From Candidatus Iainarchaeum sp. (GTDB lineage Archaea; Iainarchaeota; Iainarchaeia; Iainarchaeales; VGJJ01): a DNA stretch of 64,000 nucleotides. Positions 2 through 24,705 of this stretch are shown here, in pieces. Position 1 is the first letter of the stretch; the number at the start of each line of letters is the position of its first letter. The stretch covers positions 14,893-78,892 of the forward strand of contig JAZDJQ010000004.1 of the NCBI GenBank assembly GCA_043803765.1, given 5' to 3'. The position numbers and the translations under genes are program-made. A model generated the notes under the pieces. The model saw nothing but the letters and a program-made list of their open reading frames with translations. It ran no database searches and was not told the DNA's origin.

Positions 2-895
2 TTCTTGTTAGCCGAATTCGTATGGGCGTTATCCTGCGCATTCACTTCAGGAGCAGACGAGGCCATCCTGTACGACACGCTCAAGTCGGAAAAAAAAGAA
101 AATCAAGCCAAATCAGCTTTTTCATGGAAGGAGAGCATTGGACTCATTGCAATTGGAATTGGAAGCACGATTGGAAGCCTCACAATAATACCATTCGGAT
201 TAACATTTCCCTATTTTCTCACAGCAGGAGTATTATTCCTATCTGGACTCCTCGCCATCACAATTAAGGAACCCAAAATCATTTCCAAAAAACAAAAACC
301 CGCATTATTCACCATAATGAAAGAAGGATTAGGATACATCCGCGGACACAAAACCCTGCAAATACTAGCATTTGACATGATATCCCTGTCCGTTGTATCG
401 TATTTTATGATATGGTTATTCCAACCATTAATACAAAATGCAGGAGTCAGCATCGCCTACTTTGGACTCGTTCATACAGGAATTATCATTGCAGAAGTTG
501 GATTGCTCGCATTATACCCTCGAATAGAAAAAAAACTAGGAAAAAAAAGAAAATTATTATTCTACACGAGCATTCTCACGGGAGTATTTTTCATCATCGC
601 AGGCATAACCACCAATATCCCACTACTACTGCTCGCGATCTTCCTAGGAGGAGGAATCGGACTCACACGCAGACCTATCCTAATGGCATACATGCAACAT
701 TACATTCCTTCTGACAAACGCGCCACGATTGGATCAGGAATATCCATGCTACGAACACTATCCATCGCAGGAGCTAACCTAATCGTAGGAAAACTAGCCG
801 AATGGAACATACCCAACACCATGATAATACTAGGGGCAGCCGCCATCGCGTTTGCGATGATATCAAAAGTAGAAGAGGAGCAGCTCATCGGATGA
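2..895 (+). CDS. MFS transporter (5'-partial, open to window edge)
   Basis: Multiple hydrophobic helices, FTSGADEAILYDTLK motif and MFS-like GGGIGLTRRP..AYMQHYIPSDKRAT loop. Confidence 0.8.
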   Translation, partial: FLLAEFVWALSCAFTSGADEAILYDTLKSEKKENQAKSAFSWKESIGLIAIGIGSTIGSLTIIPFGLTFPYFLTAGVLFLSGLLAITIKEPKIISKKQKPALFTIMKEGLGYIRGHKTLQILAFDMISLSVVSYFMIWLFQPLIQNAGVSIAYFGLVHTGIIIAEVGLLALYPRIEKKLGKKRKLLFYTSILTGVFFIIAGITTNIPLLLLAIFLGGGIGLTRRPILMAYMQHYIPSDKRATIGSGISMLRTLSIAGANLIVGKLAEWNIPNTMIILGAAAIAFAMISKVEEEQLIG

Positions 896-22387: not shown

Positions 22388-22459
22388 AGCCCCGTAGTCT
22401 ATCGGCTAGGATGCCACCTTGACATGGTGGAGGGGGCAGTTCGATTCTGCCCGGGGCTA
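22388..22459 (+). tRNA. tRNA-Val(GAC)
   Basis: Acceptor AGCCCCG/CGGGGCT, anticodon arm CCACC-TTGACAT-GGTGG, T loop TTCGATT. Confidence 0.93.
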
Positions 22460-22595
22460 TCTTGTTTTGGCTCATCATCACCTTTTACCCAAAAATGCGT
22501 TCGGATTCTTCCCGGGGTGTTTACAGGCAACCTTTTTATCATTCAAATGGAAGGATTTCCATTCCCCTTTTATTCCACTTATTTCCAATCAACGT

Positions 22596-24053
22596 ATGCC
22601 CAACCAGGAAGCTATCGTAGAGAACATCCGAAAACTCAAGGAAATGGGATTAGAGGACGAAGACCTTGTTCATGAATTGGAGAATAGTGGCATCCCCAAA
22701 ATCCAAGCGGAACGATGGGTAAGGGAATCAAAAAACCTCACAACCAATGAAAGACCACACGAAGAAAACATTACTCCCAAACTCATTCCACCCAAACAAG
22801 AAACCATTCCAACCTATTCCGCACCGCGCCCGCAAGAATCAATTGAAAAATTATGGGAAAAAGGAATTTTGGCAACAGTCGATTCAAAACTATCCCAAAT
22901 GGAGAAATTGAAAAAAGAATTAGACGACGTGATAGAAAAGCGAGTAAATGCACACTACGAGGTTATGGAAAAAAAACTCGAAACATTATTTCAAGCACAA
23001 CGAGAACTTTTTCGCTTTAAGATGGACGCACAGATGGACGCCAAAGTAAAAGACGTGGAAGAAATACTCAACCAAAAAATAGACGAAATACGAAACATCA
23101 ACACGGCAACACAAGAAGACTTGCAACGGATTAAAGGACAGAAAATGATCATCACCGAACTAGTAGCTGACTTAAGCACCAAAACAAAACAATTGGAAGA
23201 AACACGAAGAGAAATAATGGATGAAACGGCAAAAAAACTAGAAGAACTACAAGAAAAAATAGACGCTTTACTTGATGAGACGGATGAACGCATCCGAGGA
23301 GTAGAACACCGGGCAACCAAAACACTAGAATTAGAAGAAAAAATCACCATCGGATTAACCGAACAGGTAGAAACACAAGCAAACCGAATACTCGAAGACC
23401 GAGTAAAAGACTTGAGACAAGAAATAAAGGACGAAATCATTCAACTCAAAAAAATGGGAGCAGACCTATCATCCAAAGATATTCAAGCAACACTGCAGGA
23501 GTTTGCCAATATCAATCTAGAAATGAAAAAAACAAAACAGGATATCGAAGGGATGGTATTACGCAAAAGTACGGATATTGATGCTGCGTTAGAAAAGAAA
23601 ATGATGGACGTAGACAAAATAGTAAACACAAAAATGGAAACCATTGTCACTATGAAAGAAAAAGATTTCTTCAAACGCATCGAAGAACAAGCAGGAGAAA
23701 TGGCTACCGCCCAAAGGGAATTAGGACAAAAACTATTAGAAGGAGAAACAAAAATACAGAATCTAGACACGTATACAAAACAATTCCTTGAAACGCTCAA
23801 AAAAGCAAACCTAGAAAGAGAAGACCAGCTCACCGATTTTAGGAAAAAACTAGAAGAATTCGAATCACGCGCAGGAGAAAAAATGGCACTTCTAGAATCA
23901 CGAACCAAACAACTCGATATTATTGTAAGCCAATTATCCCAACTCATGATTCAATGGAAAACACAAATGGATACAACAAAAGAAACAAATAAAAAACAAG
24001 AAAATCCAGCAACACAAGAAAAGAAAACAGGATTCGGAATATTCGGAAAATAA
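22596..24053 (+). CDS. Long coiled-coil protein
   Basis: E/K-rich heptads over about 400 aa; start ATG 22596 (track start overlaps tRNA-Val). Confidence 0.75.
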   Translation: MPNQEAIVENIRKLKEMGLEDEDLVHELENSGIPKIQAERWVRESKNLTTNERPHEENITPKLIPPKQETIPTYSAPRPQESIEKLWEKGILATVDSKLSQMEKLKKELDDVIEKRVNAHYEVMEKKLETLFQAQRELFRFKMDAQMDAKVKDVEEILNQKIDEIRNINTATQEDLQRIKGQKMIITELVADLSTKTKQLEETRREIMDETAKKLEELQEKIDALLDETDERIRGVEHRATKTLELEEKITIGLTEQVETQANRILEDRVKDLRQEIKDEIIQLKKMGADLSSKDIQATLQEFANINLEMKKTKQDIEGMVLRKSTDIDAALEKKMMDVDKIVNTKMETIVTMKEKDFFKRIEEQAGEMATAQRELGQKLLEGETKIQNLDTYTKQFLETLKKANLEREDQLTDFRKKLEEFESRAGEKMALLESRTKQLDIIVSQLSQLMIQWKTQMDTTKETNKKQENPATQEKKTGFGIFGK

Positions 24054-24182: not shown

Positions 24183-24254
24183 GGGCGCTTGGCGCAACGG
24201 TAGCGCGCTTCCATGGCATGGAAGAGGTTGGGGGTTCAAATCCCCCAGCGTCCA
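24183..24254 (+). tRNA. tRNA-Ala(GGC)
   Basis: Acceptor GGGCGCT/AGCGTCC with G3:U70, anticodon arm CTTCC-ATGGCAT-GGAAG, T arm GGGGG-TTCAAAT-CCCCC. Confidence 0.95.
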
Positions 24255-24308
24255 TCATATATTTGGATATCGCATCATGATGAATTCTGACAAGCATTTC
24301 TTTTGACC

Positions 24309-24365
24309 GGGCGCGACTTTTCTTTTCTAAAGAAAAGGGGTGCGTTCCGAATCCCCCAGCGTCCA
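24309..24365 (+). repeat. Degenerate partial duplicate of tRNA-Ala (16-bp direct repeat of its 3' end plus GGGCGC 5' end)
   Basis: aatcccccagcgtcca at 24239-24254 and 24350-24365; GGGCGC at 24309-24314. Confidence 0.75.
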
Positions 24366-24366
24366 C

Positions 24367-24705
24367 TTACTCTTTTTTTGAAAAACACGCGCAGGGCTTT
24401 CCACGGAGCCGACGCTTTTGTTCAGCAAGTGAATCAATCAACTCATCCTGGAAAGCAAGCCCTTTGGCGTGGCGCTTTTCCAAAGGAGATTTGTGCGCGC
24501 AGCCCCGTTTCTCCATTTCCACAACCAACGCATCATGACGCTTAAATAAGGCACGCAGTTTCCCCGCCCAGCGCTTTGTTTCGGGATGATGCAAATAACC
24601 TTTCTTTTTGTTCACATAAATTGACCAGATGGCATGCAGTTCGCGGTGCTCCCCAAGCAAGTGGACGCGACAAAGCCGACTAGGTGGAATATCCCAGATA
24701 CGCAC
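24367..24705 (-). CDS. Pyrimidine dimer DNA glycosylase / T4 endonuclease V family
   Basis: MRIWDIPPSRLCRVHLLGEHRELH, HPETKRW, RHDALVVEMEKRG. Confidence 0.85.
   Translation of the reverse strand: MRIWDIPPSRLCRVHLLGEHRELHAIWSIYVNKKKGYLHHPETKRWAGKLRALFKRHDALVVEMEKRGCAHKSPLEKRHAKGLAFQDELIDSLAEQKRRLRGKPCACFSKKE

Follow-up and report, generated by a model that had tools for sequence, protein, structure and literature searches.

A tRNA-Ala-like segment of an Iainarchaeota genome as probably part of one copy of a cargo-less insertion family specific to tRNA 3' ends

The segment studied here, positions 24309-24365, lies just downstream of a tRNA-Ala gene in a 64,000-nt stretch of contig JAZDJQ010000004.1 from Candidatus Iainarchaeum sp. 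(assembly GCA_043803765.1); the whole of this stretch is called the window below. An original prediction, made from the letters alone, took the segment for a 57-nt mini tRNA-Ala-like element, either a functional tRNA mimic or the att-site scar of an almost completely deleted integrated element. The tRNA gene itself, tRNA-Ala(GGC) at 24183-24254 (+), is an intact host gene that was called by ARAGORN and matched Rfam RF00005 with 65.4 bits; it has the G3:U70 pair and the discriminator A73 (at 24254), its CCA is unencoded, and it is the single Ala-GGC gene that ARAGORN finds in the whole genome (G000). The last 16 nt of this gene, AATCCCCCAGCGTCCA, reach from A58 of the T loop to A73 (24239-24254, +) and belong to the working tRNA. 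They have two exact occurrences in the window, the other being at 24350-24365 (+), a displaced duplicate of the tRNA-Ala 3' end that is followed by CTT, as in the empty sites of relatives described below, and not by CCA. Neither a third copy of the repeat nor a larger island was found within the window. A repeat of 16 nt is far beyond chance expectation. We consider it probable (about 0.7) that the 111 nt at 24255-24365 are an old, partly decayed copy of a non-coding, cargo-less insertion family that is specific to tRNA 3' ends in a genus of Iainarchaeota.

Comparison with intact copies revealed that the left inserted segment (24255-24296, +) is a decayed form of hp1, a GC-rich hairpin of the family. 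Intact copies carry, for example, GGAGGTATCGC-nnn-GCGATACCTC; the window copy retains GGATATCGC and has lost the partner strand, and the local fold of this region amounts to just -2.6 kcal/mol. Since hp1 is broken, we regard the window copy as an older, partly decayed one, though both of its repeats are identical. The same decayed part holds ATGATGA, then 3 nt, then CTGA (24278-24291), which resembles C and D boxes; a C/D-box reading was rejected because the spacing is far too short and Rfam gives no match.

Behind the left segment, the T-rich flank TTTCTTTTGAC (24297-24307, +) forms the start of the conserved arm; it is kept in 20 copies of the long arm variant (alignment A3) and is a possible oligo-T terminator for the tRNA transcript. 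The arm hairpin follows at 24308-24343 (+) and contains the GGGCGC on which the original prediction was built. It was defined by covariation in A3 and by the covariance model R2, which matches the window at 24300-24353 with E = 5e-13. In its lower helix 24311-24314 (GCGC) pairs with 24340-24343 (GTGC), and in its upper T/A stem 24317-24325 pairs with 24329-24337 around the loop TCT, with an internal loop between the two helices. Over 59 nt the arm shares 95% identity with a copy downstream of tRNA-Trp in another genome of the genus (L016 in G002). Directly 5' of the distal repeat stands the junction motif GTTCCG (24344-24349, +; family consensus GTTCYG). The 57 nt of 24309-24365 run through the arm hairpin and the junction motif to the displaced 3' end of tRNA-Ala.

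The sequence facts of the original prediction are all present. Both ends of tRNA-Ala recur, at 24309-24314 and 24359-24365; GGGCGC at 24309-24314 can pair with GCGTCC at 24359-24364, followed by the discriminator A; and the proposed fold, consisting of an acceptor stem, a hairpin and a loose T arm, is the minimum-energy structure of 24309-24365 (-19.5 kcal/mol). The fold is weak for its composition, with z = -1.77 and 9 of 200 shuffled sequences equally stable or better. A T/A-rich hairpin does exist at 24317-24337, but ViennaRNA and the family alignment both place it in a register shifted from the CTTTTC-TAAA-GAAAAG that had been read. The 6-nt GGGCGC match is also non-chance, but for a reason unlike the one that had been given: it is a constant box of the repeat family. 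Since the family structure pairs 24311-24314 with 24340-24343, GGGCGC is the base of the arm hairpin.

When the locus was compared with its relatives by BLAST, window positions 24297-24355 proved to be multi-copy throughout the genus, with copies often placed at the ends of contigs and sometimes in tandem downstream of a tRNA. About 45 copies were read, and they share one layout: after the tRNA's discriminator base come an optional GC hairpin (hp0), the GC hairpin hp1, a T run, the arm hairpin, GTTCYG and a copy of host positions A58 to N73. The inserts are 45-250 nt in length. No open reading frame was present between the repeats in any copy examined, and no inverted match that would indicate terminal inverted repeats was seen by eye between the left and right ends of full copies. 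GTTCYG looks like the 5' half of a T loop plus one extra base, always has the distal repeat immediately 3' of it, and is kept even where the internal module is inverted (L138).

Many compensatory changes distinguish the hp1 hairpins of different copies. The arm hairpin of the full element is long, with a GC base and a T/A upper stem, and comes in two variants. The long variant, to which the window copy belongs, has TTGAC-CGGGCGCGAC, T4-5C..GA4-5G and GGGTGCG; the short variant has TTTTCG-CCGGCC-T5..A5-GGCCGG, with sub-variants such as CCAACC/GGTTGG that preserve the pairing. Arm structures were set by hand and scored on separate alignments for the two variants (A4 replacing A2); RNAalifold returned no structure for the mixed alignment A1, because the two variants misalign in it. 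In the long variant (A3) 96.8% of the cells are paired versus 55-84% in controls with slid partners, and five pairs are changed on both sides; in the short variant the corresponding values are 87.6% and 27-69%. As judged from these alignments, the arm hairpin is under selection for structure, and compensatory changes maintain its pairing.

Two covariance models, one per arm variant, were run on the 17 genomes of the genus. In the window's own genome, for which ARAGORN predicts 46 tRNA genes, 13 matches were obtained. Twelve of them lie no more than 200 nt downstream of a tRNA, behind 11 of the 46 genes (Lys-CTT, Lys-TTT, Gln-CTG, Ala-GGC, Ala-TGC, Arg-TCT, Arg-GCG, Arg-CCG, Leu-CAG, Leu-CAA and Pro-CGG), and such downstream windows account for about 0.5% of the two strands of the genome. 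The exception is a tandem array of four short-variant hairpin units at about 54850-55020 of contig C18, in which each unit has a GAAGCGAAGCA-like spacer behind it, with no tRNA nearby and no tRNA-end copy. All 17 genomes were positive, the matches per genome ranging from 0 to 44 for the short variant and from 0 to 22 for the long one; in total, a genome has between a handful and over 50. In a set of 215 genomes from the phylum, the strict right-end motif hardly occurs outside the genus. A general terminator hairpin was rejected as an explanation, because this hairpin type is almost confined to tRNA trailers. The two arm patterns gave chance matches or none in IMG/VR, and a scan of JGI metagenomes gave 41 matches, including 4 true copies, all short, with arm variants and tRNA-end copies already known from loci of the genus. 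Searches of the literature yielded no description of such elements, and the family is apparently undescribed.

The distal copy was checked in about 40 copies behind some 27 isoacceptors, belonging to the Ala, Arg, Asn, Gln, Ile, Leu, Lys, Phe, Pro, Ser, Trp and Val families, and it always matches the tRNA immediately upstream. It begins within the T loop, usually at A58, and extends to the discriminator, mostly over 16-18 nt; three longer duplications of 24-33 nt were seen (L016, L042 and the Lys-CTT copy of the window's own genome). CCA was never found behind the distal copies, which therefore were duplicated at the DNA level, from the gene and not from the mature tRNA. A retro-copy of the mature tRNA, which a boundary at the modified position 57/58 would fit, was rejected on the same observation. 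At one locus (L052; G007:C144:2980-3500, minus) the arm is followed by AATCTCCCCCGAGACA and stands behind the apparent 5' two-thirds of a tRNA with a CAT anticodon, where ARAGORN calls no tRNA; it could represent either a tRNA with an interruption at the T arm or a copy that has degenerated.

Filled and empty sites could be compared at the orthologous tRNA-Ala(GGC) gene, whose identity is 97-100% in most of the genus. The site is empty in ten relatives, where the tRNA is followed by the exact flank that stands behind the distal repeat in filled sites, beginning with CTT or CTG (L005, L008 and L010-L015). An element is found at this gene in 6 of the 17 genomes, from different subfamilies; the filled sites measure 105 nt in G009, 194 nt in G005 and 242 nt in G016, and the sites of G015 and G008 appear to be filled too. 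Different subfamilies also occupy tRNA-Lys(CTT), tRNA-Trp and tRNA-Pro(CGG) in different species. The sub-variant CCAACC/GGTTGG occurs in six places in G002, behind at least four tRNAs, and at two loci (L023 and L038) non-identical elements stand in tandem at a single tRNA. Members of a subfamily share one orientation; in G015 and G008 the two repeats enclose an inverted internal module. Read from the compared sequences, these site patterns show turnover by insertion and precise loss, and not a fixed functional gene.

As a functional mimic, the 57 nt would be transcribed and would form a minihelix, with G3:U70 and A73, that AlaRS or some other enzyme acting on tRNAs charges or binds. Such a fold can in principle form, with a 6-bp acceptor-like stem, a G:U third pair and a discriminator A in the minimum-energy structure, and among the 20 long-variant copies the three at tRNA-Ala(GGC) all give 6-7 of 7 acceptor pairs. 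However, the GGGCGC box is unchanged where the 3' copy comes from Pro, Arg, Lys, Trp, Ser, Leu or another tRNA, so that the 5' box is constant while the 3' strand varies with the tRNA, and no covariation between the two was found; of the 17 copies at other tRNAs, 16 reach 2-5 of 7 pairs and one, at tRNA-Pro(TGG) (L029), reaches 6. Moreover, the family structure employs GCGC within the arm hairpin, the tRNA-Ala copy of G009 is without GGGCGC and would have A:U at 3:70, the ten relatives with an empty site have no element at this tRNA, and the z-score of the fold is low. ARAGORN and Rfam call no tRNA or transfer-messenger RNA (tmRNA) at 24309-24365, the only call being 24183-24254; T runs stand before and within the element, and inspection by eye showed no archaeal promoter-like box at a suitable distance. 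A functional mimic is hardly credible. The tRNA-Ala likeness of the segment is a genuine 16-nt tRNA-Ala fragment plus the coincidental complementarity of constant boxes (GGGCGC and GGGG), the apparent T stem arising because tRNA-Ala happens to carry CCCCC; a tRNA-like function is neither needed nor indicated. The scar that had been offered as the other possibility is right in that relatives have precise empty sites. As a plain scar, the locus would have no tie to a repeat family: a single element integrated at tRNA-Ala, large at first (virus, plasmid or island), would have lost its interior by deletion. Integration by an integrase is classically recognised by direct repeats of a tRNA 3' end, the own genome holds classical cassettes at tRNA-Tyr, tRNA-Phe and tRNA-Met, and the neighbouring glycosylase gene (see below) is itself an accessory insertion. 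Against this, no relative has a larger island between the tRNA-Ala repeats, and the same 55-60-nt arm and junction are found behind about 27 isoacceptors, always cargo-less, whereas random deletions would not yield identical ends each time; the classical cassettes of the own genome are all without the arm. What is found in the relatives is a discrete family of mini-elements, and we regard a plain scar as improbable.

A further explanation accepts the repeat family but holds it to be resident. The hairpins and T runs would be trailer modules that serve as punctuation for tRNA 3'-processing, termination or promotion; the 3'-end copy would be secondary, arising via microhomology between the T loop of the tRNA (GGTTCRAATCC) and the T-loop-like tail of the arm (GGTTCYGAATCC), and the arms would be homogenised by gene conversion. 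The covariation of the hairpins, which means that their structure is selected, speaks for it, as do hp0- or hp1-like hairpins in the trailers of 'empty' tRNA-Ala sites between tandem tRNA genes, similar T-run hairpins directly 5' of tRNAs in G029 and in apparent tRNA introns of G033 and G039, duplications that reach into the trailer (L016, L038 and the own-genome Lys-CTT copy), and G:T pairs that lie mostly on the tRNA-sense strand. On the other hand, sister species differ greatly in copy number, and individual sites are either filled or precisely empty, so the elements are dispensable; the same tRNA holds different subfamilies across species, and the internal module is found in both orientations. 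Nor would microhomology be expected to produce duplications with edges so alike at roughly a quarter of the tRNA genes. Resident trailer modules are thus a doubtful explanation, and an insertion family is preferred.

For the preferred insertion family, the likeliest mechanism would be the following. The element would enter the T loop between positions 57 and 58 and bring or regenerate the 16-nt 3' end, which would keep the tRNA whole and place the other copy 3' of the arm. The enzyme would act in trans and be encoded elsewhere; candidates are tyrosine integrases of 430-500 aa, which occur in 0-5 copies per genome. Of two routes, oriented site-specific recombination is given a slight preference, the other being transposition with a 16-bp staggered cut. 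In keeping with recombination, orientation is constant within subfamilies, some duplications run into the trailer, and an XerA-like recombinase is present in all 17 genomes. Recombination at 57/58 would make use of a junction, GTTCYG-AATCC, that mimics the T loop GTTCR-AATCC. Transposition would use a 16-nt staggered cut anchored on the T arm, which would explain one arm at many tRNAs. In addition, the T runs and the symmetric T/A hairpin would probably terminate transcription arriving from the tRNA as well as from the convergent glycosylase gene; archaeal RNA polymerase terminates at oligo-T.

Several points weigh against an insertion family with such a mechanism. On the recombination route, each element must carry the right tRNA-specific 16 nt, yet one arm subfamily is found at many tRNAs; the transposition route is strained by the 24-33-nt duplications, by the non-random orientation and by the fact that no suitable enzyme was seen. 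In the genomes of the genus the elements have no associated enzyme: Cas1 (PF01867) occurs in 1 of 17 genomes, which is not that of the window, the IS200-type Y1 transposase (PF01797) in 3 of 17, the 14 without it including the closed genome G015, and TnpB gave no match above the curated cut-off. No integrase adjoining an arm was found in the genus, and no cargo-bearing or extrachromosomal parent element in IMG/VR or the JGI metagenomes. Gene conversion within a genome could homogenise the arms without any movement, and some hairpin units are without a tRNA copy or far from a tRNA, such as those near 54986 of contig C18.

Readings of the family as another known kind of mobile element were rejected: a casposon, since Cas1 is absent from 16 of the 17 genomes; a TnpB/omega-RNA-like system with the flank as guide, since there is no TnpB above cut-off and the intact proximal tRNA would be self-targeted; and an IS200/IS605-derived PATE, for which insertion 3' of a short target motif and no target duplication are expected, since a duplication of 16-18 nt is the rule here. 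A possibility that we put forward only tentatively is a new class of non-autonomous mobile DNA, which would recognise the universal T arm of any tRNA gene, integrate at 57/58 and duplicate the stretch from A58 to the discriminator while the tRNA stays functional; the activity behind it might come from an enzyme that its sequence does not yet reveal, or from a host recombinase (XerA-like or a 430-500-aa integrase) that is used in a structure-guided way, as in integron attC.

A Y1 transposase gene of the window's own genome lies on contig C4 at 202-693 (-), about 14 kb before the start of the window (Pfam Y1_Tnp, E = 4e-29). It is about 190 nt downstream of tRNA-Arg(CCT), and its own flanking hairpins differ from those of the element. 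As for the classical gene cassettes mentioned above, tRNA-Tyr on contig C12 (135801-135874, -) has five more copies of its 3' end, at 2.2, 4.7, 5.6, 6.4 and 10.0 kb downstream, which delimit cassettes without the hairpin arm and have an altered T loop (TGCAAG to TTGCGAG or GTGCGAG). At tRNA-Phe on contig C1 (55758-55832), an insert of 755 nt ends in a 29-nt duplicate of the tRNA's entire T arm and 3' end; it is likewise without the hairpin arm, and its non-coding-looking stretch may hold an open reading frame on the minus strand.

Next to the element in the window lies a convergent gene for a T4 endonuclease V-like pyrimidine-dimer glycosylase (24367-24705, -; Pfam Pyr_excise, E = 4.6e-26), whose stop codon is 2 nt from the distal repeat and which is outside the element. 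In two relatives (G006 and G010) the glycosylase is missing from this position and an Sm gene stands directly behind tRNA-Ala; the glycosylase gene is an accessory insertion wedged between the distal repeat and the Sm gene, without a visible repeat of its own. Beyond it follow genes for the Sm protein and a MinD/ParA ATPase, and the surroundings are archaeal housekeeping genes. On the other side of tRNA-Ala, a 544-aa open frame (22419-24053, +) without a Pfam match ends 130 nt 5' of the tRNA gene and lies in a strongly A-rich stretch (AT skew 0.49 at 23001-24000); the TTG listed as its start overlaps tRNA-Val, so translation probably begins further downstream.

Elsewhere in the Iainarchaeota, in other families, a very similar T-run hairpin, TTTCTTTTG-CCGGC-TTTTCTTT..AAAGAAAAG-CCG, stands 1-6 nt 5' of tRNA-Pro and tRNA-Asn (L084 and L085 in G029). 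Similar hairpins were seen by eye in apparent tRNA introns on the opposite strand (L086, G039:C1:260500-261000; L087, G033:C1:1186800-1187300), where ARAGORN calls no tRNA. One of these other-family hairpins has a 22-nt exact match to the window hairpin.

For annotation, our results mean that tRNA-like fragments behind the tRNA genes of these genomes should not be annotated as tRNA mimics, as pseudogenes or as split tRNAs. In a 1-Mb genome of symbiont type, some quarter of all tRNA genes bear an insert that is structured, turns over fast, is free of genes and spares the tRNA. If the family is mobile, it suggests that some recombination or transposition activity targets the universal T loop, which would make it relevant to the biology of mobile elements; if it is not, it is a lineage-specific terminator or trailer system of tRNAs. 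Either way, the element family is a clean and testable small system.

Among known systems, the minihelices charged by AlaRS and the tRNA-like domain of tmRNA were the comparison made in the original prediction. The window copy alone shares with them a G:U third pair in a 6-bp stem and an unpaired A; unlike them, the family does not conserve the pairing and has neither a proper T arm nor CCA, and ARAGORN called no tmRNA gene in the window. With integron attC sites the family has in common a hairpin that is conserved in structure but not in sequence, beside a short motif that begins with GTT at the end of the unit, and an arrangement in arrays; it differs in that its motif is GTTCYG (not GTTRRRY) and lies outside the stem, in that there is no cargo, and in its tRNA T-loop target and 16-nt repeat. 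Like MITEs (miniature transposable elements with inverted repeats) and casposons, the family is non-autonomous, non-coding and multi-copy, with the target duplicated on both sides, and casposons target tRNA 3' ends with duplications of 14-15 bp. Unlike these, it has no terminal inverted repeats, its orientation is fixed per subfamily, and Cas1 is nearly absent. To our knowledge, a duplication of 16-18 nt exceeds that of any DDE transposon.

The repetitive extragenic palindromes of bacteria (REP/BIME and REPIN, with the Y1 HUH transposase RAYT) resemble the family in appearance. They too are multi-copy, short, imperfect extragenic palindromes, in mosaics or tandem and in both orientations, with compensatory changes and a likely side role as terminators, and a single-copy IS200-type Y1 gene exists in some of our genomes. 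However, the present family is archaeal, lies nearly always behind tRNAs, duplicates 16 nt of the tRNA end and has no GTAG/CGTC tag, and Y1 is missing from most of the genus. The nearest parallel is given by tRNA-targeting integrative elements and their integrase-less derivatives (CIMEs, and tandem accretion at att sites), with which the family shares insertion at the 3' end of a tRNA gene, an intact tRNA, a closing direct repeat, precise empty sites in relatives, tandem stacking and an insert that encodes no recombinase. An attP is normally specific for one tRNA. The family differs from these elements in being geneless, in having an arm common to about 27 isoacceptors and in the edge of its repeat, which lies in the T loop and mostly at A58. 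Taken as a whole, it works most like the integrase-less derivatives of tRNA-integrating elements.

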